NCBI GenBank assembly: GCA_964548125.1
Contig: CAZJQN010000001.1
Location: 34,303 to 98,302, forward strand
Length of the DNA stretch: 64,000 bases
DNA from: an uncultured Bacteroidales bacterium
GTDB taxonomy: Bacteria > Bacteroidota > Bacteroidia > Bacteroidales > JAAYUG01
Reading direction: 5' to 3'
Shown in pieces: positions 44,125 through 63,432 of this stretch. Every line of letters begins with the position of its first letter. Within the stretch, counting starts at the first letter, position 1. The translations under genes and the position numbers were made by a program. Below the pieces are notes generated by a model, which worked only from the letters and a program-made list of their open reading frames with translations, made no database searches and had not been told where the DNA came from.

Positions 44125-46947
44125 ATGCCAGAGGTTGCGTCGGAAGGAAAGATAGTAATCAAAGGAGCCAGGGTCAACAATCTGAAATCGGTAAACCTGA
44201 CCCTTGATCGTGACAGGCTTATTGTTATTACAGGGTTATCAGGTTCTGGAAAATCTTCATTGGCTTTTGATACGATATATGCCGAAGGTCAGCGGCGCTA
44301 TGTAGAGAGTCTCTCGGCCTATGCACGTCAGTTTCTCGGGCGCATTCAAAAGCCTGAGGTGGACGTAATCAGGGGTCTTCCGCCGGCTATTGCTATTTCT
44401 CAGAAGCAGGGTGCACATAATCCAAGATCAACTGTAGGAACCACAACCGAAATTTATGATTATCTGAAGCTGCTTTACGCACGTATAGGGAAAACCTATT
44501 CACCCGTGAGCGGAAAGCTGGTTAAAAAACATTCTGTTACGGATGTGGTTGATTTTATTCTTCAGCAACCGGAAGGAAGTAAGCTGATTCTGGCATGCCC
44601 TTTACCATCATATGGAGAGAAAGACCTGCCGCAGATGCTCCGTCTTCTTTTGCAACAAGGAATAACAAGACTTATCTGTGGCGATAAAGCTATGCTAATA
44701 GAGGAAATGGAAGAAGAAGACTTGCGAAAATTGCAGCCTTCCTGCACACGCATGGTTATCGACCGTTTTGTGGTAGGGCATGATGACGATTCAGTAACCC
44801 GTTACGGTGATTCAGTTCAGACAGCCTTTACCCTTGGGCATGGAGAGTGCTGGATCATGTCGGGTGGTGAGGGAAAACCAACTATCAATGAACACTTTTC
44901 CGATCGCTTTGAAGCCGATGGAATCAGTTTTGAAGAACCCAATGAACTTATGTTCAGTTTCAACAGCCCGGTTGGCGCCTGTCCTATGTGTGAAGGGTAC
45001 GGAAGCATAATTGGTATTGATGAAAATCTCGTAGTACCTGATAAAGGTCTTTCTATATATGAAGATGCGATTGCCTGCTGGAAGGGTGAAAAAATGAAGC
45101 GTTGGAAAGAAAAGCTGATCTTGCAGGCCGACAAATTTGGATTTCCAATTCATAAACCATATTATCAGCTTACAGAGGAGCAGAAAAGGGTTTTGTGGGA
45201 AGGGAATAAATATTTTCCTGGTATTAATGCTTTTTTTCAGCATGTTGAGGAAAAGAAATACAAAATACAATACAGGGTATTGCTTTCCAGGTACAGAGGA
45301 AGAACGGTATGTCCGGAATGCAAGGGTGTGCGGCTCAAGAAACAGGCTGGGTGGGTTAAAATAGGCGGGAAAAGTCTTCCGGAACTTGTCCAGCTTTCTT
45401 TAAATGAAGTGACAGACTTCTTTCGTTCCCTTCGCTTGTCAGCACACGAACGTGAAATCAGCTCACGACTGCTTGAAGAAATTATGAGTCGTTTGCAATA
45501 TCTCGAAGAGGTGGGGCTTGGGTATCTTACCCTTAATCGTTTGTCATCCACTCTTTCCGGAGGGGAATCACAGCGGATACGTCTGGCTACACAGCTGGGA
45601 AGTAATCTGACCGGCTCCTTGTATATACTTGACGAACCGAGCATCGGTCTGCACCCACGTGATACCGGATTGTTGATTCATGTGTTAAAGCATTTGCGTG
45701 ATTCGGGTAATACTGTTATGGTGGTTGAGCATGATGAGGAAATCATCAGGGCCGCTGATACGGTTGTTGATATAGGTCCTGGTGCCGGGAGGTTGGGTGG
45801 TGAGATTGTTTTCTGCGGAACGCATAAGGATCTGGAAAAGTCCAAAAACAGCCTTACTGCCGACTATCTTACGGGCAGGAAAGAGATTTCTATCCCTGAC
45901 AGGAGAAGAAAATGGAATAATTATATCGAAATCACAGGAGCCAGGGAGAACAATCTGAAGAACATCGACGTCAGGTTTCCTTTAAACATTCTGACCGTAG
46001 TTACAGGTGTCAGCGGTTCAGGAAAATCTTCTCTTGTATGCGATATTCTGTATCCTGCCCTGAAACGAATAATTCAGGATTCGGCTGAGAAAACGGGTCA
46101 ATTTGGAACTATCAAAGGAGATATCAAAACAATCAGGTCAGTTGAGATGGTTGACCAGAACCCAATCGGGCGTTCAAGCCGTTCCAATCCGGTTACCTAT
46201 ATTAAAGCCTGGGATGAAATCAGGAAATTATATGCATCTCAGCCTGTTGCTGAACATTACCGGTTGAATCCATCGCATTTTTCATTCAATGTAGAAGGAG
46301 GACGTTGCGAAGAATGCCAGGGGGAGGGAGTCATTCACATTGAAATGCAGTTCATGGCTGATGTAACGCTTGTGTGCGAAAGTTGCCAGGGAAAGCGTTT
46401 CAAAGAAGATGTTCTGGAAGTAACCTATCAGGGAGCCAATATATACGATGTGCTGGAAATGACGGTCGATGAAGCTATTGCATTTTTTGGCAAATCAGAG
46501 AATACTTTGAGCAGGCGAGTTGTGGAGAAACTTAGACCGCTTGCTGATGTAGGACTTGGATATATTAAGCTGGGACAGTCGTCCAGCACTCTGAGTGGTG
46601 GTGAAAGCCAGAGGGTAAAACTGGCGTCCTTCCTGAGTCATGAAAATGCGGAAGGAGGTACTGTTTTTATATTTGATGAACCCACTACAGGTCTTCACTT
46701 CCATGACATAAGAAAACTTCTGGATGCTTTTCAGGCTTTGATAGAACATGGCAATTCCATTATTGTGATAGAACACAACATGGAAGTCATCAAATGTGCC
46801 GATTGGATAATTGACCTTGGTCCGGAAAGCGGAAACAATGGTGGAAATTTAGTTTGTGAAGGCACCCCCGAAATGGTTGCTGCATGCGAACAATCGTATA
46901 CCGGGAAGTTTCTTCGGAAAAAGCTCAGGCAGTTTACTTCTCTTTGA
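44125..46947 (+). CDS. uvrA: Excinuclease ABC subunit A
   Basis: There are two ABC ATPase modules (GLSGSGKSSLAFDT and GVSGSGKSSLV), zinc-finger CxxC pairs and LSGGE(S)QR signatures. The track start at 44104 is TTG, so ATG 44125 is preferred. Confidence 0.95.
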   Translation: MPEVASEGKIVIKGARVNNLKSVNLTLDRDRLIVITGLSGSGKSSLAFDTIYAEGQRRYVESLSAYARQFLGRIQKPEVDVIRGLPPAIAISQKQGAHNPRSTVGTTTEIYDYLKLLYARIGKTYSPVSGKLVKKHSVTDVVDFILQQPEGSKLILACPLPSYGEKDLPQMLRLLLQQGITRLICGDKAMLIEEMEEEDLRKLQPSCTRMVIDRFVVGHDDDSVTRYGDSVQTAFTLGHGECWIMSGGEGKPTINEHFSDRFEADGISFEEPNELMFSFNSPVGACPMCEGYGSIIGIDENLVVPDKGLSIYEDAIACWKGEKMKRWKEKLILQADKFGFPIHKPYYQLTEEQKRVLWEGNKYFPGINAFFQHVEEKKYKIQYRVLLSRYRGRTVCPECKGVRLKKQAGWVKIGGKSLPELVQLSLNEVTDFFRSLRLSAHEREISSRLLEEIMSRLQYLEEVGLGYLTLNRLSSTLSGGESQRIRLATQLGSNLTGSLYILDEPSIGLHPRDTGLLIHVLKHLRDSGNTVMVVEHDEEIIRAADTVVDIGPGAGRLGGEIVFCGTHKDLEKSKNSLTADYLTGRKEISIPDRRRKWNNYIEITGARENNLKNIDVRFPLNILTVVTGVSGSGKSSLVCDILYPALKRIIQDSAEKTGQFGTIKGDIKTIRSVEMVDQNPIGRSSRSNPVTYIKAWDEIRKLYASQPVAEHYRLNPSHFSFNVEGGRCEECQGEGVIHIEMQFMADVTLVCESCQGKRFKEDVLEVTYQGANIYDVLEMTVDEAIAFFGKSENTLSRRVVEKLRPLADVGLGYIKLGQSSSTLSGGESQRVKLASFLSHENAEGGTVFIFDEPTTGLHFHDIRKLLDAFQALIEHGNSIIVIEHNMEVIKCADWIIDLGPESGNNGGNLVCEGTPEMVAACEQSYTGKFLRKKLRQFTSL

Positions 46948-47374
46948 ATCCAAACATAATAGCAACGCAACCTTGCTGAATTGCATCAGGACTCGACCCT
47001 GAAGAAGGAACTTTTACATAAATTTTTAGCTGCTGGCTTGACTCAAGCTTAAAATCCCAGGTCTTGGCATAGTTGTTTTTCTTGTTGTCGTACAGAACAT
47101 TTTTGTTGGCATCAATCACCTTGAATTCGATGGGAGGCAGAGCATCTGAACCGCAGATAGCAATACGATACTCCTGGTCAGAATAAAAGGTTTTGTAAAG
47201 TTCTGCTTCTTCACCTTCAACAAGAACAGCGGCGTGAAAATTGCCATCATGAATATAGGGAGTAAGTTCGAGTTTGCAGATTTTTTTGGCGAATCCTTTA
47301 CATTGAGCATTCCCGTAGAGGGGTACCATGACCAAAATTGCTATAGCAAGGGTTGCTTGTAAGACTCTTTTCAT
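46934..47374 (-). CDS. Hypothetical secreted protein
   Basis: 146 aa. The signal peptide is MKRVLQATLAIAILVMVPLYGNAQ. The 3' end overlaps the uvrA 3' end by 14 nt (convergent). Confidence 0.65.
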   Translation of the reverse strand: MKRVLQATLAIAILVMVPLYGNAQCKGFAKKICKLELTPYIHDGNFHAAVLVEGEEAELYKTFYSDQEYRIAICGSDALPPIEFKVIDANKNVLYDNKKNNYAKTWDFKLESSQQLKIYVKVPSSGSSPDAIQQGCVAIMFGFKEK

Positions 47375-47386
47375 ACGTCGCGGTAT

Positions 47387-48310
47387 TTATAATGTAAAGT
47401 TGGTTCTGATGTCTTTGGCCTTCTCGCGCAATTCATCAAATATTTCCTGAGTGATCTGAATTTCTGACTTGGATTTGAGGAGTGTTACATTAGTTTTAGG
47501 ATCTTCTACGGGTGTGATAGCAGAGGTTTTGATGGTAATCTTGTCAAAAGTTTTTTTCAGATCATTCATTTGCTCAAGAATGCTTTCAACATCAGGATTT
47601 TCTTTATTTTCTTCAAGAAGTCGCAGTACAATTTCAAGCGAAAACTTTTGCTCCACAATTCGTTCTACAAGTTTATTTCCTTTCACCGGACTTTTTCCCA
47701 CGAGTTGGGTGGCAATGTACAGGCCTTCAACCCATCCGCCGACCAATACGATACTAGCCACTGCCTTACGCTCGTTTTCCAGCAGGAAGGAGTTGGACGA
47801 CATGAGTGTTTCAGAAATAATATTCATCAGTTCGTCCCGGTTGTTCACGTTTTCTTCCAGCCGATCAATTGTAGTCTGGTCGATGGCATCAAGAATGCCC
47901 AGACCATCGGCCATCTTTTTAGCGGCCTGCATATAGTTTATAGAGGTCTGTGTCTGGTCAAAAAGGCTGGCAAAACTGAGGTCGGTTGAGAAGATTCCCA
48001 GATTCAACGCCATCTGTCTGTTGGTGGTATAGTTATTGGCGTTAGATAAGGGGTTGAGAAGGCTTTCGTTATACTTGGCTCCAGCTGACTTCAGCAGCAC
48101 TGCTGTTTCAAGCGGTGAGGGGAGTGAATAAAATACTTTTTTTGCTTCGTTTAAATCTTCAAATATCTCATCACCTGCAGTAAGATCTACGGTATTTTGT
48201 TCATTACTGGTATTCTTACTCCCTTCTGACCGGCATCCGTTTATTATGGCAAATGCGAGTAACAAGCCGAGAAAGGAAACGGTTTTGACAGAAATATTTC
48301 GCAGCCACAT
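47387..48310 (-). CDS. Hypothetical lipoprotein, predominantly helical
   Basis: 307 aa. It has a signal peptide with a lipobox-like AIINGC. It ends 12 nt upstream of the 146-aa gene on the same strand. Confidence 0.65.
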   Translation of the reverse strand: MWLRNISVKTVSFLGLLLAFAIINGCRSEGSKNTSNEQNTVDLTAGDEIFEDLNEAKKVFYSLPSPLETAVLLKSAGAKYNESLLNPLSNANNYTTNRQMALNLGIFSTDLSFASLFDQTQTSINYMQAAKKMADGLGILDAIDQTTIDRLEENVNNRDELMNIISETLMSSNSFLLENERKAVASIVLVGGWVEGLYIATQLVGKSPVKGNKLVERIVEQKFSLEIVLRLLEENKENPDVESILEQMNDLKKTFDKITIKTSAITPVEDPKTNVTLLKSKSEIQITQEIFDELREKAKDIRTNFTL

Positions 48311-48505
48311 AGGGTTAGGGTTTAATTGTCGTTGTTTGACTTATGTGAGTAAAAGTACAAATTTTTTAAATAAAAAAAATAATGGGTGATTAAATTTGAT
48401 TCAGGTTGATTACAAGTTCCGGAAAATGTTTTACTCGTAACAGAAGTATCTCTCTGGGTATAGATTGACATATTTTTAAATAACAATGATTGCAGAATCC
48501 CGCTG

Positions 48506-49384
48506 TCAGTATATTCGGTCAGTCAATAAGTCGTCATAGGAAGAGTCGAGCGAATCAGTCCACCCTATAAGATAACTGGTTAATGCGCCGATAGACATGC
48601 TTTCAATGTTTCGCCCGTATGGATCCTGCATAATATCGTCAGGGAACTCGTGCTGTGCCAGCCTGATTTTACTTTGACTTCTGCGGAATGGGGTTTTGTA
48701 CAGATCGGCTGCTCCGAAAAGATGCAGGATATTGTGCGCAATTTCTGAAGGGTATTTATAACTAATAATCCCAAACTCAACATCGTTAGTATCGAATGTG
48801 TTTACTTGAAGTGAGATGTCAACTCTATAATAATTATTTAGAAAAAACATGAGGGCAACACTTTCAACAGCATGGTCGTCGCGCAAAAAGGCTACTAATC
48901 TTTCCTTGTTCCTTGGATTTTTGATTTCGGGAATTCCGTCTTTTTCAGGCATTACATAAGCACTTCCAACCCTTTTGGCTATATTATCTCCCCATGTGTT
49001 TAGTTCTTCCAGTCCCTTTCTTAGTCCAAGTTTGTCAATGGTTTTGCTTACCGTACCATAGGTCAGGTTCCTGCTTATGGTTGAATATTCCTTACCTATA
49101 TAATAATCTGTTTTTATTCGCAAGGGAATTCCTGCTGATGCTGCCTGGTTGTGCAGCCATTTTACGGCTGTTGAAATAGAGTCGAGGGTGGTTCGGATAT
49201 CAAATTCAGTCCAGGGTGCTGATTCTTTGTTGTCAACGAAAACAAAGTAAATCAACACATCTCCTTTCAGAAACTTGCATACATTTTTGTTACGGCTTTC
49301 TCTGTAGTCGATCCGTTTCAGAGAAAAGGAAGAGGGGATCAAGGTAAGCCCTGCAACAATCAGAATCCCTGCAATGATTCGCAT
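48506..49384 (-). CDS. Membrane-anchored hypothetical protein with degenerate metzincin-like motif HNILHLFGAAD
   Basis: The track ORF (48506-49450) starts at a TTG overlapping the nth stop. The first ATG, 49384, gives MRIIAGILIVAGLTLIPSS (N-terminal anchor). The motif HNxxHxxGxxD lies at 48704-48736. Confidence 0.65.
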   Translation of the reverse strand: MRIIAGILIVAGLTLIPSSFSLKRIDYRESRNKNVCKFLKGDVLIYFVFVDNKESAPWTEFDIRTTLDSISTAVKWLHNQAASAGIPLRIKTDYYIGKEYSTISRNLTYGTVSKTIDKLGLRKGLEELNTWGDNIAKRVGSAYVMPEKDGIPEIKNPRNKERLVAFLRDDHAVESVALMFFLNNYYRVDISLQVNTFDTNDVEFGIISYKYPSEIAHNILHLFGAADLYKTPFRRSQSKIRLAQHEFPDDIMQDPYGRNIESMSIGALTSYLIGWTDSLDSSYDDLLTDRIY

Positions 49385-49446
49385 AACTATAAAAAAGCTT
49401 GCTGTCAAAAATAATAAAACATTTTGAGCATTGCATGCTGGCCTTA

Positions 49447-50103
49447 TCAAACTGGCTTATTGTGCTGGTTATAATATTTGCAAATCCCGGTAAGTCCGCA
49501 TTGATCGCATTTGGGTTTTCGTGCCTGACAAATGTAACGTCCGTGAAGTATTAACCAGTGATGGGCTTTGGGAATGAGGCTTTCGGGGATAAATTCCACC
49601 AACTGTTTTTCGGTCTGCAGTGGATTTTTTGCCCTGTACGTAAGTCCAAGACGGGCGGCTACCCTAAAAACATGTGTGTCTACGGCAAGTACCGGCCGGT
49701 TATATATTACAGAGGCCATAACATGGGCTGTTTTTCTCCCAACTCCCGGTATCTTTTGCAGTTCAGCCGTATCCTCCGGTATCATCCCGTTGAACTTTTC
49801 CACAACCGTTTTAGCCATTCCAACCAGATACCTGGCTTTACTGTTGGGATAGGAACAAGAACTGATAAGCGGGAATACCTCTTTTTCGGTCGCTTTGGCC
49901 AGAGTATAAACGTCGGGAAATCGTTTAAAAAATGCAGGAGTAATCAGATTAACTCTTTTATCGGTGCATTGGGCAGACAGAATTACAGCTACGAGCAATT
50001 CATATGGATTCTTATAGAGAAGTTCTGTCTCAGCTACCGGCATTTTTTCAGAAAAATAGGCAATGAACTTCTCAAAACGCTCCCTGCGTGTCATATTAAA
50101 CAT
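49447..50103 (-). CDS. nth: Endonuclease III
   Basis: 218 aa. The HhH-GPD motif is LQKIPGVGRKTAHVM and the C-terminal 4Fe-4S cluster motif is CQARKPKCDQCGLTGICKYY. Confidence 0.93.
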   Translation of the reverse strand: MFNMTRRERFEKFIAYFSEKMPVAETELLYKNPYELLVAVILSAQCTDKRVNLITPAFFKRFPDVYTLAKATEKEVFPLISSCSYPNSKARYLVGMAKTVVEKFNGMIPEDTAELQKIPGVGRKTAHVMASVIYNRPVLAVDTHVFRVAARLGLTYRAKNPLQTEKQLVEFIPESLIPKAHHWLILHGRYICQARKPKCDQCGLTGICKYYNQHNKPV

Positions 50104-50130
50104 ATGGTTATTTTACAAGTATAAATATTT

Positions 50131-50162
50131 TTTGCATTTCTCTTCACAAAATATTATATTTG
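50131..50162 (+). promoter_or_regulatory. Putative Bacteroidota-type promoter (-33 TTTG / -7 TATATTTG) for the aro/phe/tyr operon leader
   Basis: TTTG at 50131-50134 and TATATTTG at 50155-50162 lie 20 bp apart. This matches the TTTG / TAnnTTTG consensus and spacing reported for Bacteroides promoters. Confidence 0.5.
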
Positions 50163-50187
50163 TCGCTGAATAACCTTTTAAGCAATC

Positions 50188-50238
50188 ATGAGCAACATCA
50201 TATCAGGTTTTTATTTTTATTTTTTTGGAATAACGTGA
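50188..50238 (+). CDS. Putative Phe/Tyr-rich leader peptide MSNIISGFYFYFFGIT (16 aa)
   Basis: ATG is at 50188 and TGA at 50236-50238. There are six consecutive aromatic codons, TTT TAT TTT TAT TTT TTT (50209-50226). Alternative hairpins follow immediately downstream. Confidence 0.6.
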   Translation: MSNIISGFYFYFFGIT

Positions 50239-50239
50239 C

Positions 50240-50280
50240 GGGATTATCTGGACGCGCAGTAAGCGTTTTGTGATAATCCC
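50240..50280 (+). promoter_or_regulatory. Putative antiterminator hairpin of the leader
   Basis: GGGATTATC (50240-50248) is the perfect complement of GATAATCCC (50272-50280). An internal ACGC/GCGT mini-stem is also present. The 3' arm shares ATCCC with the terminator's 5' arm. Confidence 0.55.
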
Positions 50281-50305
50281 GGACAGTATCCGGGATTTTT
50301 TTTTT
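50276..50305 (+). terminator. Intrinsic terminator (attenuator) 4 nt upstream of pheA
   Basis: ATCCCGGA (50276-50283), loop CAGTA and TCCGGGAT (50289-50296) form a hairpin that runs into a T-tract ending at 50305. Confidence 0.75.
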
Positions 50306-50309
50306 AAAT

Positions 50310-51182
50310 ATGGTTACTATGGATTCATTAACAAAAAACAAAACATTACGGATTGCCATTCAGGGTGGCTTTGGAGCATTTCATGACATAGCTGCTCACC
50401 TGTATTTTGAAAACCAGCCGGTAGAAATCATACCCAATGATACGTTTAAGGATCTTTTTGCATCGCTTAAATCAAGGGAGGCTGACATGGGAATAATGGC
50501 CATCGAAAATTCCCTGGCCGGCAGTATTCTCCCCAATTATACCATTCTCAAGGAATCAGGAATGAAAATTATTGGAGAAATTTATCTTCAGATTACCTTA
50601 AACCTGGTAGCACTTCCGGGTCAGGCTATCAGCGATCTCAGGGAGGTTTATTCTCACCCGATGGCAATACTTCAGTCGCAGCAGTTTTTTGGCAATTATC
50701 CCCATATCAGGCTGGTAGATAGCATTGATACTGCTATCAGTGCAAGGGAAATAGCTGAAAAACAAATAAGGGGAGTTGGTGCGATTGCCAGTAAGTATGC
50801 TGCTGAGAAATATGGTCTGGAAATTTTAGCCGAGGGGATTGAAAGTAATAAAATGAATTACACGCGTTTCCTCATTGTTAAAGACACTAATGGTAACATT
50901 AAAGGAAATGGTCGAATCAACAAGTCATCGGTTTCTTTTTCGCTTGCACATGAAATCGGTGGCCTGTCGAAAATACTTTCTATTTTGTCGTACTATAACA
51001 TGAACCTGACCAAGATTCAGTCGATGCCTATACCGGGCAGAGACTGGGAATATCATTTTTATGTAGATATGATGTTTACTGACTATCGTTTATATCTTCA
51101 ATCACTTGAGGCTATAAGGCCTTTCACAAGTGATCTTACCATTCTTGGTGAATACGAAAAGGGCAAATCAGTTACAGGATAA
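50310..51182 (+). CDS. pheA: Prephenate dehydratase (PDT + ACT domains)
   Basis: 290 aa. RIAIQGGFGAFHD, the TRF motif (YTRFLIV) and a C-terminal ACT-like region (GGLSKILSIL) are present. Confidence 0.9.
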   Translation: MVTMDSLTKNKTLRIAIQGGFGAFHDIAAHLYFENQPVEIIPNDTFKDLFASLKSREADMGIMAIENSLAGSILPNYTILKESGMKIIGEIYLQITLNLVALPGQAISDLREVYSHPMAILQSQQFFGNYPHIRLVDSIDTAISAREIAEKQIRGVGAIASKYAAEKYGLEILAEGIESNKMNYTRFLIVKDTNGNIKGNGRINKSSVSFSLAHEIGGLSKILSILSYYNMNLTKIQSMPIPGRDWEYHFYVDMMFTDYRLYLQSLEAIRPFTSDLTILGEYEKGKSVTG

Positions 51183-51193
51183 AAAGTACAAAT

Positions 51194-52297
51194 ATGAAAA
51201 TTGATCCATTCAAGTTACCGGGGGTTTCAGAGGAGAGGCCTCTAATTATCGCCGGGCCGTGCAGTGCCGAATCAGAAGAACAGGTGCTTACGGTGGCACT
51301 TGCAATATCACAAATGGGCATACGGATTTTTAGGTCCGGATTGTGGAAACCCAGAACTCGTCCGAATGCATTTGAGGGGCATGGTTCAGCCGCTCTTCCC
51401 TGGCTCCGGCGTGTAAAAGAAGAGACAGGAATGTATATCGCTACTGAGGTCGCCAATGTAAAACATGTATACGAAGCCCTCAGGGGAGGAATTGATATCG
51501 TGTGGATTGGCGCCCGTACTTCTGCCAATCCTTTTGCTGTTCAGGAAATTGCTGATTCCCTGAAGGGAGTGGATATTCCGGTTCTCATTAAGAATCCGGT
51601 GAATCCGGACCTTGAGTTATGGATTGGTGCTATTGAGCGACTTTATCATTCAGGAATCCGCCGGCTGGGGGTCATTCACAGGGGCTTCTCAAAATACGAG
51701 CAGACGGCGTACCGAAACCACCCGCAATGGCAGATACCCATTGAACTGAAACGCAGATATCCGGAACTAACCATCATTACTGACCCCAGCCATATCTGCG
51801 GCAACAGAGAGAACCTCCTGCAGGTTTCTCAGCAAGCCATGGACCTCAACTTTGACGGACTGATTATTGAAACACACCACGATCCCGATAATGCCCTCAG
51901 TGATGCCAAACAGCAAATAACACCCGATCAACTAAAACACCTTCTTTCCAGGATAGTTTTACGTCACCAGGAAGTCGACGCAGTTGCCAGAGTGACCCTC
52001 GATGAACTCCGGGAACAAATTGATCAGTATGATGATCAGCTCATGAACCTCCTGGAAAAGAGAATGGGAATTTCTGAAAAAATCGGAGAGTATAAGCGGA
52101 AAAATAATATTACTATCTTACAAACCCGCCGATGGGATGAGATTATTACCAACCGTGTAAAGCAAGGACTGGAAAAAGGCCTTAGTATGGAGTTCGTAAC
52201 TAAAATTTTCGAAGCTATTCATCAGGAATCCATTAATCATCAGACAACCGTAATGAACAGACAGGATGAAACCGTTTCAGATACGACACAAAAGTGA
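51194..52297 (+). CDS. Bifunctional 3-deoxy-7-phosphoheptulonate (DAHP) synthase / chorismate mutase type II
   Basis: 367 aa. The N-terminal half is a type I-beta DAHPS/KDO8PS-like barrel (IIAGPCSAESEEQ, LWKPRT, DPSH). The C-terminal ~90 aa form a chorismate mutase helix bundle (LDELREQIDQYDDQLMNLLEKRMGISEKIGEYK). Confidence 0.88.
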   Translation: MKIDPFKLPGVSEERPLIIAGPCSAESEEQVLTVALAISQMGIRIFRSGLWKPRTRPNAFEGHGSAALPWLRRVKEETGMYIATEVANVKHVYEALRGGIDIVWIGARTSANPFAVQEIADSLKGVDIPVLIKNPVNPDLELWIGAIERLYHSGIRRLGVIHRGFSKYEQTAYRNHPQWQIPIELKRRYPELTIITDPSHICGNRENLLQVSQQAMDLNFDGLIIETHHDPDNALSDAKQQITPDQLKHLLSRIVLRHQEVDAVARVTLDELREQIDQYDDQLMNLLEKRMGISEKIGEYKRKNNITILQTRRWDEIITNRVKQGLEKGLSMEFVTKIFEAIHQESINHQTTVMNRQDETVSDTTQK

Positions 52298-52309
52298 GTT
52301 ACAAACATT

Positions 52310-53338
52310 ATGGAAACGTTGATTATTCGTACCGGGAATCACCAGTCACAGGTATTGATGGGCGAATCATATACCCGGGTTGGAAAGTACCTTCCTGATG
52401 CTAAAGTTATTGCAGTTACAGATAAAAATGTATACGCAAACTACAGGGAGTTTGTCAGTCAATGGCCTGTTATTGTTATAAAACCGGGGGAACAAAACAA
52501 GACATTTAATACTCTGGAATATATTATCGATAAACTGATCCGTCTGAGTGCTGACAGGAGTACCTTTGTTCTCGGTATAGGAGGCGGAATCGTTTGCGAT
52601 ATTACCGGCTTTGCAGCTTCGGTCTATATGCGCGGATTACGGTTTGGTTTTGTCTCCACTTCGTTGCTTTCGCAGGTAGATGCCAGTGTGGGAGGTAAAA
52701 ACGGTATCAATTTCAGAGGGTTTAAGAATATGGTTGGTGTTTTCCGTCAGCCCGACTTTGTTCTGTGTGATCACACCATGCTGAAAACGCTTGATAACCA
52801 TGAATTTATAACGGGTTTTGCTGAAGTAATTAAAGCTGCGGCTATTCGGGATGAAAATTTTTTTTCCTGGTTGGAAGCAAATTATAAGGCCGCTCTGAAT
52901 CATGATCCGGAAGTTTTGCAGGAAATGATATATCGTGCGGTAAAAATTAAAGCAGAGGTGGTTGAACAAGATGAAAAGGAGAAAAACCTTCGGAGAATTC
53001 TTAACTTTGGCCATACATTTGGTCATGCATTGGAGAAAGTTGCCGGAATATCTCATGGAGAAGCCGTCTCTGTTGGTATGGTGATGGCAGCAAAATTGTC
53101 TGAGAAAAAAGGAACTGCTCCCTCCGGAACAGCCCTGCGCCTTCAGCAGTTACTCAGCGGTGTAGGATTACCGTTGCTTTCTCCGGTCCCCCCTGATAAA
53201 CTGGCTGATGCAATGGCTCGCGATAAGAAAAAAGAAAAGGAACAAATGTTTCTTGTACTTTTACACCGCATAGGCGAAGCTATATCAATGCCGATACCCT
53301 TTACCGAATTAAAACAACATCTCCATGATTTGCGTTAG
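52310..53338 (+). CDS. aroB: 3-dehydroquinate synthase
   Basis: 342 aa. GIGGGIVCDITGFAAS, SQVDASVGGKNGIN and NFGHTFGHALE are present. Confidence 0.92.
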   Translation: METLIIRTGNHQSQVLMGESYTRVGKYLPDAKVIAVTDKNVYANYREFVSQWPVIVIKPGEQNKTFNTLEYIIDKLIRLSADRSTFVLGIGGGIVCDITGFAASVYMRGLRFGFVSTSLLSQVDASVGGKNGINFRGFKNMVGVFRQPDFVLCDHTMLKTLDNHEFITGFAEVIKAAAIRDENFFSWLEANYKAALNHDPEVLQEMIYRAVKIKAEVVEQDEKEKNLRRILNFGHTFGHALEKVAGISHGEAVSVGMVMAAKLSEKKGTAPSGTALRLQQLLSGVGLPLLSPVPPDKLADAMARDKKKEKEQMFLVLLHRIGEAISMPIPFTELKQHLHDLR

Positions 53339-53984
53339 TATTGCAGAATCATCGTTCGAAAACTGCCTTTCGGCAGTCCGCAGGGAACCTTTTAGCGAAA
53401 TCCGTCTTGATCAGGCTTTTTTCTCACCTGAACAGATTACTGAACTGTTTTCATCAGGAAACCGGATTATTGCCACATGTCGTCCCGGAAATCATAGTGA
53501 CGCAATGCGCAAAGAGATGCTTATGCATGCTATCGTATCAGGGGCTGCCTATGTTGACATCGAACTGGAGGCTCCGCCTGATTACCGGAACGAGATTATT
53601 AAAATGGCAAGAAAACACAACTGTCAGGTAATTATTTCATTTCACGACTATCTCGATACACCGGTCATGAGCCGGCTGGAAAAGAATCTTGAACTTTGTT
53701 ATTGCGCCGGAGCAGATATCGCCAAGATTGCCTGTATGGTTAATGACCGTGAAGCTTTGCTTCGTTTGTTTCAGCTCTATTATTATAAGGGAAGGAAGGT
53801 TATTGTGGGCATGGGGTTGTTTGGTCCATTATCAAGGATCGCGGCTCTATCTCTAGGTTCTGAATTTACCTTTGCATCGTTGGTAGGCGGTAAGCAAACT
53901 GCTCCCGGACAGCTGACAAGGCAGACAATGGAACAGATACTCTCCATTTTGGGAATACATACTGAGTTAAAGCAACCACAATGA
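53325..53984 (+). CDS. aroD: Type I 3-dehydroquinate dehydratase
   Basis: 219 aa. SEIRLDQ, the YVDIELE motif and ISFHDY are present. It overlaps aroB by 14 nt. Confidence 0.85.
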   Translation: MICVSIAESSFENCLSAVRREPFSEIRLDQAFFSPEQITELFSSGNRIIATCRPGNHSDAMRKEMLMHAIVSGAAYVDIELEAPPDYRNEIIKMARKHNCQVIISFHDYLDTPVMSRLEKNLELCYCAGADIAKIACMVNDREALLRLFQLYYYKGRKVIVGMGLFGPLSRIAALSLGSEFTFASLVGGKQTAPGQLTRQTMEQILSILGIHTELKQPQ

Positions 53985-53991
53985 TTTCTTT

Positions 53992-54996
53992 ATGAACAGT
54001 TTCGGAAGGCTTTTCAGAGTAAATATTTTCGGAGAATCACATGGCCCGTCTGTCGGTGTCGTCTTGGATGGTTGTCCTGCCGGAATTCCTCTGGGCACTG
54101 ATGATTTTATACCCGATCTTTCGCGACGGAAGTCCGGTTCATTGGGCACTACTCCCCGCCGGGAAGAAGATATTCCTGAACTGGTAAGCGGAATTTTCAA
54201 CGGCTTTACTACCGGTGCACCATTAACTGTAATTTTCAGAAATACCAATACCCGTTCACAGGATTATGTGAAACTCAGGGAAACTCCCCGTCCGGGCCAT
54301 GCTGATTATACGGCATCTGTCAAATTCGGAGGTTTTGAAGATTACAGGGGAGGCGGACATTTTTCCGGACGTCTCACCCTTGGGCTTGTGGCGGCAGGCG
54401 TGGTGGCAAAAAAAATCATTCATCCGGTTGCAATTAGTGCTTCTCTCATCGAAGCCGGAGGCAAAACCGACATCCAGAAAGCGATTGAAGAAGCTGTTGC
54501 CAGGAAAGACTCCATCGGAGGTATTGTGGAATGTAAGGTACAGAATCTTCCAGCCGGTTTAGGAGAACCTTTTTTTGATTCGGTGGAAAGCCTGATCAGC
54601 CATGCAGTTTTTGCCGTTCCGGCTATTAAGGGAATCGAATTTGGCTGTGGTTTCAGGGCGGCCCGTATGTGGGGTAGTGAACATAATGATGCTTTTATTG
54701 GTCAGGACGGTACTACCCGCACTAACAACGCAGGAGGAGTCAACGGGGGTATTACCAATGGTAATGAACTGATATTCAGGGTGGCCGTTAAACCAACATC
54801 CAGTACCGCTCAGGTTCAGCATACCCTGAATTTTAAGACAGGGGAAATGACTGATCTGAAAATTGAAGGAAGGCACGATACCTGTATCGCCCTCAGAGTG
54901 CCTGTTGTGATTGAAGCTGTTACTGCTGTTGTTCTGGCTGATTTGATGTTTCTCGAACAGAAGATCGATCGGATAATTGATACAAAAATAAATTGA
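53992..54996 (+). CDS. aroC: Chorismate synthase
   Basis: 334 aa. MNSFGRLFRVNIFGESHGPSVGVVLDGCPAG, RPGHADY and GRHDTC are present. Confidence 0.92.
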   Translation: MNSFGRLFRVNIFGESHGPSVGVVLDGCPAGIPLGTDDFIPDLSRRKSGSLGTTPRREEDIPELVSGIFNGFTTGAPLTVIFRNTNTRSQDYVKLRETPRPGHADYTASVKFGGFEDYRGGGHFSGRLTLGLVAAGVVAKKIIHPVAISASLIEAGGKTDIQKAIEEAVARKDSIGGIVECKVQNLPAGLGEPFFDSVESLISHAVFAVPAIKGIEFGCGFRAARMWGSEHNDAFIGQDGTTRTNNAGGVNGGITNGNELIFRVAVKPTSSTAQVQHTLNFKTGEMTDLKIEGRHDTCIALRVPVVIEAVTAVVLADLMFLEQKIDRIIDTKIN

Positions 54997-55009
54997 GAAT
55001 TTACGTTCT

Positions 55010-55789
55010 ATGAGAATTCTGATTACTGGTGCAGGAAGAATGGGATCGTGGTTGGTAGAGTCACTTTGTCTGGACCATGATGTGGCTGTTTATGATAAGG
55101 ACAAGACGAAACTGAAGTATCTTTTTCATGCGCACAGGTTTATTTCTGCCGATGAGATACAAGCCTTCAGGCCTGAACTATTGATCAATGCTGTGAGCCT
55201 TCAGCATACCGTTCCGGCCTTCCGGGAAGTCCTTCCATTATTACCTGATGATTGTATAATTTCCGATATCACTTCGGTAAAGAACGGACTGAAGAAATTC
55301 TATCAGAGTACAGGAAGGAGGTATGTTTCAACCCATCCTATGTTTGGTCCTACCTTTGCCAATGTTAAGGAATTAAAGCATGAAAATGCTATTATCATTT
55401 CGGAAGGAGACAGCGAGGGACAGGAGTTTTTCAAAAAGTTTTACAGTTCTTTCGGCCTGAAGATTCATTACTATTCATTCGAAGAACATGATCAGACCAT
55501 TGCATATTCCCTGTCAGTTCCATTTGCATCCACACTTGTATTTGCCGCCTGTATGAAACAACAGGATGCTCCGGGTACTACCTTTATGAAGCATATGGCC
55601 ATTGCCAAAGGGCTTCTTTCGGAAGATAATTATCTTTTATCAGAGATCCTTTTGAACCCTTATACGCTGGAGCAGGTAGAAAAAATCCATGGTCAGCTGG
55701 ATCAGCTCATTCAGATGATCCGCAGTAAAGATACGCCCGGATTGCATGCTTTTTTTGATGCACTGCGGTCCAATCTCGGTGTCAGATAA
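55010..55789 (+). CDS. tyrA: Prephenate dehydrogenase
   Basis: 259 aa. The Rossmann motif is MRILITGAGRMGSW. The STHPMFGP motif is characteristic of the TyrA family. Confidence 0.85.
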   Translation: MRILITGAGRMGSWLVESLCLDHDVAVYDKDKTKLKYLFHAHRFISADEIQAFRPELLINAVSLQHTVPAFREVLPLLPDDCIISDITSVKNGLKKFYQSTGRRYVSTHPMFGPTFANVKELKHENAIIISEGDSEGQEFFKKFYSSFGLKIHYYSFEEHDQTIAYSLSVPFASTLVFAACMKQQDAPGTTFMKHMAIAKGLLSEDNYLLSEILLNPYTLEQVEKIHGQLDQLIQMIRSKDTPGLHAFFDALRSNLGVR

Positions 55790-55796
55790 ATACCAT

Positions 55797-57395
55797 TTAC
55801 CAACCGGGATTTTGTTTCAGCATACCTTCCATTACATTGATTTCCGAAATCGGTATAGGCAGAAATTCTGAGCGTCCCGGTACAAAATTGGTAATATAAT
55901 CTTCAGGTTTTGCCCAGATTACGTTTTTCTCGTCAGGTTTTCCCCACCGGACAAGATCGAAAAAGCGCAGGCACTCGAAGGCGAGTTCCACGTCACGTTC
56001 ATGAATTATGGCTTCTTTGGTGAGCGAGGCCAGGGCTGGCATTCCTGCCCTTGCCCGAACCCGGTTCAGTGCAGCGAGGCCTTCTGCAGAAGCAGGATTA
56101 ATATGATATTCTGCTTCGGCGTACATCAGCAGAACATCAGAAAATCGGAGTGATCGCCAGTTATTGGGATCCTGAAAGGGAGCTGCCGGATTGGCTAGGT
56201 GAACAGGGTAGCAGTATTTTTTTAATCCGTAGCCCTGTGATATGGCTGTCAGATTATGAATCCCGATTTTGAACGGAACCAGATAATAATCAGATTTGTC
56301 AGGGTACCATTGATCGATTATATCACCGGGAGAAAAAATGCTTGCATAAAATCGGGGGTCTTTTTTCAGGCCGGCAGGGTGATTGGTTACCGATTCATAT
56401 TGCTCAGCCATTTTTTTGGTTGGCACCACATTGCGCCATCCATTAATTCCAAAATAGGCTGAGAACAAAGATCCGTCATTTTGCCAGCCTGGATTCCAGT
56501 AATGTCCCCAGGTGGTAAAACCATCGTTAAACTGGACAGAGAAGACAGATTCAATATTATTTTCAGCTTTGTAGGTTTTATGGGATGATTTGAGGTCAAA
56601 CGGGGAGAAGTTGCAAAGATAGGCATAAACATAGTCAACCGAATCAGCATTGGTTTCTGGTGGCATCATCAGGTCATGGGGTCCCTGATCAATAAGGATT
56701 TTAAGATAATGGGATGCAGAATCCCAAACCTGCTGGTATAGGTAGGTTTTTCCTAGCATAGCGAGGGCAGCGCCTCGTGTGGCCCGGCCGATATCTTCCG
56801 GTTTCGTCCAAAGCCATGGTAATTCATCAATAGCCTGCCGAAATTCATTTTCTACAAAATCGTAAATCTGATGTTGGGGTGTATTGCCGTATTTAATATT
56901 CGGATCTTCAGTTGCATAAGTTACCAGAGGCGGTGCATTAAAAGTGCTGGCCAGATAGAAATAATAGAATCCTCTCAAGAAATGCAGCTGTCCGTAATAA
57001 AGCTTTTTGGTTTCTTCAGCCATTGGTATATCGGGAAGGTGCTGAAGCAGAATATTGCACCGGTAAACACCCTTGAATAAATCGTAATAGAGGGAACCTA
57101 CACGTCCGTCATCGGCTTTGAATATGTAAAGTTCATATTGTGCGTTTTCGTGTATCAGCCTGTCATCTAACGAGTAAAATAGAAACTGAAAGGTGTTACC
57201 ATTAAACCCTCTCCAGCCAAGCGGAGAGTATGCAGCAATCAGGGCATCGGATGCATCGCGTTCCGTTCGGTAAAAATTGCCTGTTGTTACCGCATTTTTG
57301 TTTTCCAGATACAGATAGTCTTTGCCGCAACCGGCCAGAAGAAGCAATACGAAAATCAGCCGGGCTTTTATAAAGGAATATTGAAGTGTTTTCAT
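55797..57395 (-). CDS. SusD/RagB family nutrient-binding outer-membrane lipoprotein
   Basis: 532 aa. The lipoprotein signal is LLLLAGCGKD. SusD-like TPR-containing sequence includes the ERDVELAFE..RFFDL.RW C-terminal motif. It lies directly downstream of the SusC-like gene. Confidence 0.9.
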   Translation of the reverse strand: MKTLQYSFIKARLIFVLLLLAGCGKDYLYLENKNAVTTGNFYRTERDASDALIAAYSPLGWRGFNGNTFQFLFYSLDDRLIHENAQYELYIFKADDGRVGSLYYDLFKGVYRCNILLQHLPDIPMAEETKKLYYGQLHFLRGFYYFYLASTFNAPPLVTYATEDPNIKYGNTPQHQIYDFVENEFRQAIDELPWLWTKPEDIGRATRGAALAMLGKTYLYQQVWDSASHYLKILIDQGPHDLMMPPETNADSVDYVYAYLCNFSPFDLKSSHKTYKAENNIESVFSVQFNDGFTTWGHYWNPGWQNDGSLFSAYFGINGWRNVVPTKKMAEQYESVTNHPAGLKKDPRFYASIFSPGDIIDQWYPDKSDYYLVPFKIGIHNLTAISQGYGLKKYCYPVHLANPAAPFQDPNNWRSLRFSDVLLMYAEAEYHINPASAEGLAALNRVRARAGMPALASLTKEAIIHERDVELAFECLRFFDLVRWGKPDEKNVIWAKPEDYITNFVPGRSEFLPIPISEINVMEGMLKQNPGW

Positions 57396-57415: not shown

Positions 57416-60400
57416 TTAAAAATCAATCTGCACGCCGCCCATAAATGTTCGGGGCAGCGGGTAGTTTCCATAGTCAATTCCGAAGTTCAGATTTTGTTTA
57501 CTTCCGATTTCAGGATCATATCCTGTGTACCTGGTGAAAGTATAAAGGTTGGATGCATTGACGTAAAGCCTGAGCGATCGGATACGCAGAAATGTAAGGA
57601 GCTTAGCAGGAAGTGTATAACCGACCTGCAGGTTTTTGATGCGGAGAAAGGATCCATTTTCGATAAAGAAACTTGAAATTCTGTTATTGTCGTTGGGATC
57701 AATAATACTTGCCCTGACCTGTTTGTTGGTGTGATGGGATGGTGACCAGAAATCCAGTGCTTCACGAAGCTTGTTATTGTCTTTTCCTTCCGGGTCTGTG
57801 GCCAGGCCGGCATTTGCTCTAAAATCATTGTATATATCAACATTTTGTACTCCATACAAAAAGACGGCCAGATCAAACTGTCCATAGCCAGCATCGAGGT
57901 TAAAACCGTAGGTAAAGTCGGGAACAGGTTTTCCTATGATTACCCTGTCCAGATCAGTTACTTTCCCGTCCCGGTTGATGTCACGGAATCGTATATCGCC
58001 CGGACTGGTCTTCTCATTCTGAAAAGCATGGTTATTAACATCTTCCCAGCTCTGAAAGATTCCGTCAGCAATATATCCGTAAAAACTGCTGATGGTGTGT
58101 CCTTTCATGGTAATACTGTGGCTTTCAATAATATTTCTTCCAGCCGGCAGATTAGTAACAGTATTTTTAATGGTTGTCAAGTTGCCGTTTAAAGAATATT
58201 TCCATTTCCCGGCTGATTTTCTGTAGGTCAAATTCAATTCAATTCCTTTGTTAATCATATTGGCCACATTCCCCCAGGGTTCAAATCCTTCGAGGCGTCC
58301 ATGGACACTTGAAATGGGGATTGTTGCCAGCATTTTTTGCTGATCCTTATAATAGTATTCGAAAGTGAATTCCAGCTGGTTGCGAAACAGAATCAAGTCC
58401 AGTCCAAGATTCGTCATAGAGGCTTCTTCCCATTGAATAGCAGCGTTTCCGAAATTGTAAAGCGGCCCGCGGCCAAAAACTGTTCGCCCTGGATCTCCCA
58501 TGGCAGTTACAAATTCAACTTTTGGTTCAATATAGCTTTCATACTGAAATGAACCTATGTTTTCATTTCCGGTAACTCCATATCCTATGCGGAGTTTACC
58601 TGATGTAATCCAGCTGTATTTTTGCAACAGGTCTTCACTGAATTTCCAGGCAGCGGAAAAGGAAGGGAAGGTGCCCCATTTGTGCTTGGGACCAAATTTG
58701 GAAGATCCGTCTTTTCTTATACTTGCGGTAAGAAAATATCTTCCGTTATAATCATAGATAATTCTTCCCAGGTAGGATTCCATTCGTTCCTGTCCGGCAT
58801 ATCCGCTGGCCGTGTAGGTAGTAGGGTCGGCCATAGCCAGAACATTGAGGTTCTCAAAATCAAAATTGGCGCCTTTACCGCTCAGGCTTTCCCCTTTCCC
58901 GTCTTCATTGGTGTGGACGAATGTCAGGGCAAGGTTATGTTTGCCAAACGTGTTTTCATAAATCAGCTGTTTATCCCAGAAGTATTTTCCTCCCTGGTCT
59001 CGGGACATGAAAAGGGTACTTACATAGCGTGAACGGCCTCCTATGGTTCCGAGTTCATACACAGGATTCCACTGTCTTACCTGATAAAAATTCATGTCGT
59101 ATCCGAAATTAGTTCTGAACCTGAACCCTTTAAAAATTTCTACCTCTCCATACAGACTTACTAAAAAACGGGTGCTCCTGTTTGTATTGTCATTCAGCAT
59201 TTGTTCAGCAACCGGATTGGTTCGTTCATTAACCGGAGTCACTTCAGGTGTTGGTCCCGCATATCCACCTTTATTGTTTTTATCATACACCGGCATAAGG
59301 GGTGAGGTTTTAGCAGCAATAATCCAGGGATTCCCATTGGTGTAATGGCTCTGGTCGTCAACGCCGATATTACTGAAATTGAAAGATTCTCCTATCTTAA
59401 TTCGCTTACCTATTGAAAAATCCGAATTTGCTTTCAGCGTATAACGGGTCATGGAGGTTCCAATCAATATGCCGTTTTCATTATAAAAATTTCCTGAAAT
59501 CATGTAGGTACTTTTCTCCCCACCACCCAGAATCCTCAGATCATAGTTTTGTCCTACTGCCGGTTGCGAAATTTCTTTCTGCCAGTCAGTATCAATATTT
59601 CCGTTAAGCGCTCTCACCGAATCGGAATATGCAACAGGAAATGGCATAGGAACGGTGGTGAAAGGGTCAGAATTGTAATACCGATAGGCTGAATCCATGA
59701 GAGCTACATACTCATCGGCATTCAGAATATCATACAACCGAGGAATTTTTGAATACGAAACATACGAAGAAAATGAGACCTGAGGTTCGCCTTTTTTGCC
59801 TCGCCTGGTGGTAATCATCACAACCCCGTTGGCTCCTCTTGCCCCATAAATAGCTGTTGCTGAAGCATCTTTCAGAATATTAACCGATTCGATATCGTTC
59901 GGGTTTAAATGATTAAGTCCCCCGGTAATAGGGAACCCATCGATCACGTACAGAGGCTCTGATTCCCTGTTTATTGAACCAATGCCTCTTATTTTTACCG
60001 ATACCTCCGAACCAGGCCGACCCGAAGTGTTTGTAACCCAAACACCTGCAGCTTTTCCCTGTATTGCCCTGTCAAAGCTCATGGAATTGGTCTTGGCAAT
60101 TTGCTCAGAACTCACTACTGATACGGCACCGGTCAAATCCTTTTTCTTTACGGTGCCATACCCGATGACCACAATTTCGTCAAGGATTTCGGCTTTAACC
60201 GATAGGGCAACATCAATTCTGTTTCTTCCTTCCACAGGAATTACCTGTGTTTCAAGTCCAACAAATGAGAACTGTAAGGTGTCTCGATCATTCCGGCAGG
60301 TGATTCTGTAACTTCCATCCGGGGCTGAAATTACACCGATGGAGGTACCTTTAATCGTTACATTAGCTCCCGGCAAAGGTTCAGATGTTGAAGCATCTGT

Positions 60401-63358: not shown

Positions 63359-63432
63359 TGATCCGGGCGGGATTCGAACCCACGACCCGCAGCTTAGAAG
63401 GCTGCTGCTCTATCCAGCTGAGCTACCGGACC
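63359..63432 (-). tRNA. tRNA-Arg (anticodon TCT)
   Basis: The reverse complement is GGTCCGGTAGCTCAGCTGGATAGAGCAGCAGCCTTCTAAGCTGCGGGTCGTGGGTTCGAATCCCGCCCGGATCA. It folds by hand into a 74-nt cloverleaf:
- 7-bp acceptor stem
- GCTC/GAGC D stem
- GCAGC/GCTGC anticodon stem with loop CTTCTAA
- GTGGG/CCCGC T stem with loop TTCGAAT
No CCA is encoded. Confidence 0.95.

Follow-up and report, generated by a model that had tools for sequence, protein, structure and literature searches.

The DNA considered here is a stretch of 64,000 nucleotides (nt), from now on the window, of an uncultured Bacteroidales bacterium (GenBank assembly GCA_964548125.1, contig CAZJQN010000001.1, positions 34,303 to 98,302 of the forward strand). 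It contains six consecutive genes of aromatic amino acid biosynthesis, headed by pheA, and the subject of this analysis is the 206-nt gap that separates pheA from the upstream gene nth. In all likelihood that gap encodes a leader-peptide transcription attenuator, referred to below as the window copy of a unit that recurs in related genomes. When the window sequence is read from 49900 to 50500, all of the elements that an earlier note on this DNA had described are present. From upstream to downstream, the features of the gap are as follows (F, phenylalanine, Phe; Y, tyrosine, Tyr; ORF, open reading frame).

50131..50134, plus strand: candidate -33 promoter box TTTG, read in the sequence, 20 nt upstream of the -7 box.
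50155..50162, plus strand: candidate -7 box TATATTTG, consensus TAnnTTTG, of a Bacteroidota-type promoter, read in the sequence.
50188..50238, plus strand: leader ORF MSNIISGFYFYFFGIT, 16 codons and TGA (ATG at 50188, TGA at 50236-50238), with conserved equivalents in relatives.
50209..50226, plus strand: putative regulatory codons TTT TAT TTT TAT TTT TTT (F Y F Y F F), read in the sequence.
50239..50248, plus strand: predicted antiterminator 5' arm (segment 2, arm A) CGGGATTATC, starting directly after the TGA; from folding and a duplex test.
50250..50268, plus strand: small hairpin in the antiterminator loop, GGACGC-gcaguaa-GCGUUU, predicted by folding.
50272..50281, plus strand: predicted antiterminator 3' arm (segment 3, arm B) GATAATCCCG, of which 50275-50281 (7 nt) is common to the terminator 5' arm.
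50275..50297, plus strand: predicted intrinsic terminator hairpin AATCCCGGA-cagta-TCCGGGATT, -13.0 kcal/mol; from a terminator scan and folding.
50297..50305, plus strand: terminator U-tract (T9), read in the sequence.

The 16-codon mini-ORF and its six consecutive aromatic codons were thus correctly described, as were the two overlapping hairpins and the T-tract that ends at 50305. GGGATTATC (50240-50248) is complementary to GATAATCCC (50272-50280), and the pair C50239:G50281 in fact lengthens this helix to 10 bp. The core of the terminator hairpin, ATCCCGGA-cagta-TCCGGGAT, occupies 50276-50296, and the terminator scan calls it at 50275-50297. In the window copy the duplex of arm A with arm B has a predicted free energy of -16.9 kcal/mol (z -3.7 relative to dinucleotide shuffles); the fold z-score of the whole 148-nt stretch is -2.2. 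The small loop hairpin at 50250-50268 is not conserved in the alignment of 96 related units introduced below, and is therefore probably incidental.

The genes that follow the gap, whose identities as first proposed are borne out by NCBIfam matches, are these (DAHP, 3-deoxy-D-arabino-heptulosonate 7-phosphate).

50319..51182, plus strand: pheA, prephenate dehydratase, the first gene under the proposed control; the ORF opens with an ATG at 50310.
51194-52297, plus strand: DAHP synthase/chorismate mutase (fusion).
52310-53338, plus strand: aroB.
53325-53984, plus strand: aroD.
53992-54996, plus strand: aroC.
55010-55789, plus strand: prephenate dehydrogenase (tyrA); the operon after pheA spans 51194..55789.

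The earlier note had placed the pheA start at 50310. The next ATG, at 50319, is more likely to be used, because the methionine at position 4 (M4) is nearly invariant among aligned homologues and the closest homologue, 96% identical, has 287 amino acids (aa). Upstream of the gap, nth (endonuclease III, by NCBIfam) is divergently oriented; the hairpin, which sits between the candidate promoter and pheA, cannot therefore be the nth terminator. The statement that the operon makes exactly Phe and Tyr was too strong: aroE, aroK, aroA and an aminotransferase gene are absent from it, so that it is not a complete Phe/Tyr pathway, and its chorismate and common-pathway enzymes also feed tryptophan (Trp, W).

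The leader ORF is singular in its surroundings: on both strands of the window, MSNIISGFYFYFFGIT is the only ORF of 8-48 aa with at least six aromatic residues in seven consecutive ones. For comparison, a PheA-alignment scan, taking one genome per species, provided 80 loci (L001-L080) from uncultured Bacteroidales/Bacteroidota with PheA 62-69% identical, and in all 80 the order pheA, DAHP synthase/chorismate mutase, aroB, aroD is kept as far as the fetched DNA reaches. The full arrangement of nth and pheA to tyrA, with the six-gene order kept, is found at L082 (P0002, PheA 78% identical), which is the sole close syntenic leader compared, P0001 having just 29 nt upstream on its contig and P0004 and P0005 having no DNA to compare. 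At 73 of the 77 loci with enough upstream DNA to be counted, a mini-ORF with at least 5/7 F, Y or W residues lies no more than 250 nt upstream of pheA, as against 30 of 3550 background windows of 250 nt (0.85%).

Across the related loci 97 units of leader plus terminator were identified. Since T-rich DNA yields Phe codons whatever the frame, a frame test was run, anchored on the GGG of the antiterminator arm as a landmark that is independent of frame. The most aromatic frame has an in-frame upstream ATG and no stop in 87/95 units, compared with 7 and 9 units for the other two frames, and its stop ends no more than 6 nt before the GGG arm in 58/95. That the aromatic frame is the one kept open from an ATG indicates that the ORF is conserved as an ORF. 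As a peptide it is conserved in the aromatic run alone, with flanks, termini and length (12-47 aa) varying freely, which is the signature of regulatory codons. Phe and Tyr codons are both present in every one of the 97 related leaders (on average 5.3 F, 3.1 Y and 0.35 W codons each), and 34 of them also have a Trp codon. The regulatory run of the window leader holds 4 Phe and 2 Tyr codons; Trp codons are absent from this leader, and trp genes from the DNA that follows it. The correspondence that had been drawn between this codon content and a Phe/Tyr-only operon is overstated, given those 34 leaders.

The RNA switch itself is conserved as well. (Terminators were located by folding anchored on the T-run; an exact-stem detector, which this procedure replaced, missed many mismatched ones.) In a MAFFT alignment of 96 units, each taken from its last aromatic codons through to the T-run, the GGG of arm A, the CCC of arm B and the terminator 5' arm, and the GGG of the terminator 3' arm are invariant or almost invariant, virtually every unit has a T-run behind the hairpin, and the region between the arms is conserved in neither length nor sequence. 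RNAalifold recovers the terminator helix unaided as the consensus structure of the 96 units. In that helix 86.6% of cells are paired (76.7 +/- 0.8 in shuffles), 115 cells have changes on both sides (46 +/- 5 in shuffles), and pairing is no higher than 58% with a slid partner. The corresponding values for the antiterminator helix are 70.3% of cells paired (65.4 +/- 0.9), 106 cells with changes on both sides (75 +/- 7), and at most 53% pairing with a slid partner; its covariation score of 0.245 (0.184 +/- 0.012) is matched by 0/500 shuffles. An alignment-free test gives a contiguous helix through the GGG:CCC anchor with a mean length of 7.7 bp, against 6.24 +/- 0.15 with arms permuted among units, and in 63/97 units the duplex of arm A with arm B is stronger than in dinucleotide shuffles (p<=0.05). 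Between the window and L082, one antiterminator pair differs on both sides (T:A to C:G) and two others go from U-A to U-G, all with pairing preserved. Both things that the earlier note had proposed to look for in orthologous leaders, a conserved F/Y-run ORF and compensatory changes in the stems, are accordingly there.

The proposed -33/-7 promoter also has its counterparts in the relatives. At 49/76 related loci the first leader ATG is preceded, at a distance of 5-70 nt, by an exact TAnnTTTG, as against 3.6% of background 65-nt windows, an enrichment that supports the proposed promoter; among the loci that also have an upstream TTTG, spacers of 19-20 nt predominate. From the end of the TAnnTTTG box to the leader ATG the distance is typically 18-20 nt in the relatives and 25 nt in the window copy. 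A sigma-70 promoter scan returned sites at the rate of shuffled sequence and is uninformative for Bacteroidota; the TAnnTTTG test was used in its place.

Pairing in arm A begins 9-16 nt past the last aromatic codon in 84/97 units. The leader stop is 0-6 nt upstream of arm A in 60/97, and in most others the ORF enters or crosses the arm. The window copy has its arm immediately behind the TGA, at a distance of 12 nt from the last Phe codon. This spacing fits a switch operated by ribosome masking, because a ribosome whose A site holds an aromatic codon would end just short of arm A, and one that has finished translation would sit on the arm. The window transcript was also folded with a ribosome footprint of ~31 nt masked, a size assumed from general knowledge. 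Free RNA then folds into the antiterminator, as does RNA whose ribosome is stalled on the aromatic run, at its first codon or at its last; with the ribosome at the TGA, the terminator forms. The predicted free energies of the two alternative structures, whose comparison had been suggested as a check, are -21.3 kcal/mol for the antiterminator with its inner hairpin and -13.0 for the terminator, and the outcomes of masking are as had been predicted.

A side observation concerns the leader stop. It is TGA in 52/97 units, usually in the context TGA-A/C-GGG; pheA itself stops with TAA in 66/81 of these loci and with TGA in 9/81. The preference for TGA in leaders may reflect a constraint of the arm sequence, or selection for a slowly released stop that holds the ribosome on the antiterminator arm.

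Our reading of this arrangement is that a ribosome-mediated leader-peptide transcription attenuator very probably controls the operon pheA, DAHP synthase/chorismate mutase, aroB, aroD, aroC, tyrA, and that it most likely senses the supply of Phe and Tyr. The claim that two mutually exclusive hairpins are chosen between by leader translation draws support from the frame test, the conservation of the core, covariation, spacing, masked folding and the promoter. Anatomy, conservation, covariation, geometry and thermodynamics are established by computation; footprint sizes, the response in vivo and the sensing of Tyr in addition to Phe are inferred.

The switch would work as follows. Transcription would start a few bases after the TAnnTTTG box, and a ribosome would then translate the 16-codon leader. 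With Phe-tRNA and Tyr-tRNA plentiful, the ribosome should reach the TGA at 50236-50238, where its footprint would cover CGGGAUUAUC (50239-50248). Masking of that arm would leave GAUAAUCCCG unpaired, allowing AAUCCCGGA to pair with UCCGGGAUU, and the hairpin with its U9 tract would terminate transcription just before pheA. A shortage of charged tRNA-Phe or tRNA-Tyr would make the ribosome stall on FYFYFF (50209-50226) and leave 50239-50248 free to pair with 50272-50281; this 10-bp antiterminator would block the terminator, and the operon would be transcribed. Most of what characterizes the class is found: a leader ORF with clustered end-product codons, a terminator before the first gene, an overlapping antiterminator, and a geometry suited to masking. 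What is missing is a segment 1:2 (anti-antiterminator or pause) hairpin of the kind known from the trp/phe paradigm of enterobacteria.

That missing hairpin is the first of several points that weigh against the proposed attenuator. No significant 1:2 hairpin was detected in the window copy (best duplex -9.3 kcal/mol, z -0.01, p 0.47), which accordingly has no counterpart of the element that in the Escherichia coli paradigm synchronises transcription with translation and terminates by default. In the related units a 1:2 hairpin, formed by the segment upstream of the aromatic run with the arm A region, is significant in 31/97 and thus optional; it is typical of the enterobacterial paradigm and is no requirement of the leader-peptide attenuator class. 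Lacking a detectable 1:2 hairpin, untranslated RNA of the window copy is predicted to read through, in what would be a three-segment design. The antiterminator covariation taken without gaps is modest outside the GGG:CCC core, with pairs 46-51 just ~50-60% paired. The compared sequences, moreover, are related to each other, so that the shuffle controls overstate independence, which the slid-partner controls mitigate. Finally, the organism is known solely as an uncultured Bacteroidales metagenome-assembled genome (MAG).

Among the related units, the 1:2 hairpin, whose loop contains the regulatory codons, is seen for example in L002, L005, L011, L026, L031, L044, L047, L051, L072 and L077. Separately, the members of one subfamily of leaders, ...SYAGNFFGFWFYFFY...CFRD (L024, L026, L031, L044, L051, L071), have a conserved hairpin, GCCGGAAACU...GGUUUUUGG, inside the leader ORF, between about -140 and -115 from pheA, where it overlaps the codons at the head of the aromatic run. 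The detector called this hairpin a terminator, which is a miscall; it could be a pause element or an element of the 1:2 type.

A last point against the proposal bears on its input, and leads to the alternative that survives best: the same attenuator as a sensor of Phe only, its Tyr codons being tolerated or of minor effect, and Tyr limitation bringing no derepression. The review PMC11802643, in its passage on the experimentally tested Corynebacterium aroR leader (Phe-Tyr-Phe, upstream of aroF), reports a response to Phe limitation and none to Tyr availability, and Phe codons outnumber Tyr codons both in the related leaders (5.3 vs 3.1) and in the window copy (4 vs 2). Yet Tyr codons are interleaved with Phe codons in all 97 related leaders, the distal leaders of the tandem arrangements described below are nearly half Tyr (3.05 Y vs 3.65 F), and the operon ends with prephenate dehydrogenase, which serves the Tyr branch. 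We judge a Phe-only sensor unlikely, though its probability is appreciable.

Far less probable is a switching of the hairpins by a trans-acting factor, be it uncharged tRNA in the manner of a T-box, a protein resembling TRAP or PyrR, or a small molecule acting through a riboswitch, with the T-rich ORF as an incidental feature. Switches between terminator and antiterminator are common to all of these mechanisms, and Bacteroidota mostly lack Shine-Dalgarno sequences, so that translation of the mini-ORF cannot be read off from a ribosome-binding site. What argues against such a factor is that no T-box, riboswitch or other Rfam family matches at E<=10 or at the gathering threshold over the window, and that the region between the arms, conserved in neither length nor sequence, offers no conserved structured domain to which a ligand or tRNA might bind. 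The conserved position of the stop and the conserved aromatic frame, open from its ATG, are explained by a translation-based mechanism alone.

Equally improbable, in our estimate, is that the mini-ORF encodes a functional hydrophobic micropeptide or serves as a reinitiation enhancer of pheA, the hairpin then being a leaky constitutive terminator or an RNA-stability element. A part in promoting reinitiation has been proposed for leader ORFs near structural genes in a number of phyla, Bacteroidetes among them (PMC4833913), and some leader peptides, peTrpL for example, act in trans in other bacteria. Conservation of the aromatic run alone is, however, what regulatory codons would show and not what a peptide that folds or is targeted would; at ~70-80 nt from the pheA start, and with the terminator intervening, the leader stop is too far away for reinitiation; and the conserved overlap of two alternative helices has no role in either version. 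A chance arrangement, in which a T-rich intergenic tract reads as Phe/Tyr beside an ordinary hairpin, might be suggested by the AT-richness of the region, by the fact that T-runs read as Phe in any frame and by a fold z-score of just -2.2, but is excluded by the comparative data (73/77 orthologous loci vs the 0.85% background, 87/95 in the frame test, invariant switch bases); the uniqueness of the ORF in 64 kb and the divergence of nth, whose terminator the hairpin is not, also speak against it.

Some relatives have an arrangement that the single unit of the window does not display. About 19-20 of the 77 related genomes carry, between the promoter and pheA, a tandem pair of complete units (126-162 nt apart), each of them comprising a leader ORF with its antiterminator and terminator. 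The loci with tandem units in the 300 nt upstream of pheA are listed here.

Tandem-unit loci: L001, L003, L009, L013, L014, L019, L022, L035, L037-L043, L045, L049, L063, L079.

The count is approximate because an apparent distal unit of L044, at -137, is the hairpin inside its leader ORF and a false positive. Distal leaders of tandem pairs are short and Tyr-rich (3.65 F, 3.05 Y and 0.10 W per leader); proximal leaders are longer and Phe-rich, and 11/20 have a Trp codon. A wider interpretation is possible and is put forward tentatively: that these units form a phylum-wide attenuator family outside Rfam, in Bacteroidia and Flavobacteriia, which uses a GGG/CCC/GGG switch to gate the common pathway together with the Phe and Tyr branches; that tandem units act as an AND-like sensor with two inputs, for different aromatic amino acids; and that the window copy is a 'default-on' variant that would terminate only if translated.

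Other features of the neighbourhood can be noted briefly. Three ORFs (146, 307 and 314 aa; 46934-49450, minus strand) adjoin nth, and their order is syntenic in L082 and in L085 (P0006, PheA 72% identical), where their counterparts have no Pfam match on record; the 314-aa ORF, the sole one of the three scanned, has no NCBIfam match. Beyond the other end of the operon, a SusD-like gene (55797-57395, minus strand) and a 1034-aa ORF (57416-60520, minus strand), probably its SusC partner, converge on the end of tyrA, and a terminator scan between tyrA and the susD-like gene detected no terminator-like site. A tRNA gene (63359-63432, minus strand) is the only Rfam family at gathering score anywhere in the window.

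It remains to compare the window element with known systems. Searches of Rfam at E<=10 on 49800-50700, and at the gathering threshold over the whole window, gave no match to Phe_leader (RF01859), Bacteroid-trp (RF01692), Leu/phe leader (RF01743) or T-box (RF00230), so that the element belongs to no curated family; the first three of these were the leader families that the earlier note had named for such a scan. (Matches to MicC, Arrc14 and anti-hemB are chance terminator-like similarities.) The paradigm is the pheL-pheA attenuator of E. coli, in which a run of Phe codons in the leader and alternative antiterminator and terminator hairpins control prephenate dehydratase. Its logic, which is summarised in PMC3082878 and PMC11802643, is shared by the window element, which in sequence or structure does not match RF01859. 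In E. coli the regulatory codons are all Phe, pheA is the one gene controlled, and the design has four segments (1:2, 2:3, 3:4), whereas the window element has mixed Phe/Tyr codons and no detectable 1:2 hairpin, and precedes six genes that include common-pathway steps and tyrA. An experimental precedent for a mixed run is the aroR leader of Corynebacterium glutamicum, which precedes the operon of the DAHP synthase gene aroF (Neshat et al. 2014, in the summary of PMC11802643). According to that summary's passage on it, aroR resembles the window element in that Phe and Tyr codons gate a common-pathway gene by ribosome stalling, and differs from it in phylum and in having three regulatory codons; the two are unrelated in sequence.

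Within Bacteroidota, the Bacteroid-trp motif (RF01692; Weinberg et al. 2010, PMC2864571) is likewise a leader-peptide attenuator of an aromatic amino acid operon. It has Trp codons and precedes trp genes, and the window element matches neither the model nor these features. The earlier note had been aware of no dual Phe/Tyr-codon attenuator described for a combined common-pathway/Phe/Tyr operon in this phylum, and the novelty it claimed does not hold in the light of two published accounts. The first, Table 7 of Song et al. 2005 (PMC1173090), citing the Merino attenuator database, places a putative attenuator before the Bacteroides thetaiotaomicron genes pheA, hisHb, aroA(I-beta)-aroQ and tyrA. 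As described there, the operon is, like that of the window, a Bacteroidales operon with pheA first and with DAHP synthase/chorismate mutase and tyrA; it differs in having an aminotransferase gene and in lacking aroB, aroD and aroC. Its attenuator is a database prediction, compared here by description only, and the portion of that account given to it describes no leader peptide. A B. thetaiotaomicron transcriptome study (Ryan et al. 2020) treats leader-like small ORFs in general terms and does not mention pheA.

The second and closer account concerns Flavobacterium psychrophilum, for which Guérin et al. 2021 annotated the pheA-aspC3 leader THC0290_N_0195 as a 'leader peptide attenuation element' (PMC9723704, SI D9, Table S7), with condition-dependent read-through, conservation in Flavobacteriaceae and no Rfam match. 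The annotation counts as a precedent for the attenuator proposed here, and the transcriptome data behind it are the only support, an indirect one, for premature termination in vivo. Like the window element, this leader lies 5' of pheA, and its short ORF has F and Y (and W) residues interleaved in a run, MNTNNTFYSNNSFYFYWNIGRDCYMVI. Some 10 nt downstream of that run stands GGGAUUGU, followed by a spacer, ACAAUCCCG, CGGGAU and a U-run, at the same spacing as in the window element. When the published sequence is aligned with the window, L082, L004, L020, L005 and L007, GGGATT, TCCC, GGG and the T-run are invariant; with the window element itself it agrees at every switch base (GGGATT, TCCC(G), (C)GGG and the T-run). 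The window element thus has the layout of this leader (GGGAUU... / ...AUCCCG / CGGGA-U-run), which is not that of a curated family. The differences are that the F. psychrophilum operon is pheA-aspC3, with a DAHP synthase gene listed beside aspC3, and that of the window has six genes; that the F. psychrophilum leader ORF crosses the antiterminator arm and has a Trp codon, whereas the window leader stops just before the arm; and that the F. psychrophilum element is backed by the transcriptome (a 5' transcribed region and read-through), and the window element is known from sequence alone.

For the window, what is gained is a well-supported annotation of an otherwise blank gap of 206 nt and, in an uncultured member of the Bacteroidales, a probable link that ties six aromatic-pathway genes to the charging of Phe- and Tyr-tRNA. 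Attenuators in Bacteroidetes/Chlorobi are also reportedly mentioned by Vitreschak et al. in 2004. The understanding of attenuation is unchanged, the mechanism being a textbook one whose use at pheA in the phylum had already been proposed. An Rfam family for the pheA leaders of Bacteroidota, which now have no model, could be started from the comparative set of 97 units, with its switch core, its rules of spacing and its tandem variants, and such a model would improve the annotation of operons and small ORFs in Bacteroidota genomes and MAGs. Set beside these systems, the window element is unexceptional, its mechanism having been predicted before for pheA in Bacteroidota; the less-described aspects, namely the want of a curated model, the invariant GGG/CCC/GGG core, the tandem units and the TGA stops, have more to do with the related leaders as a family than with this locus.

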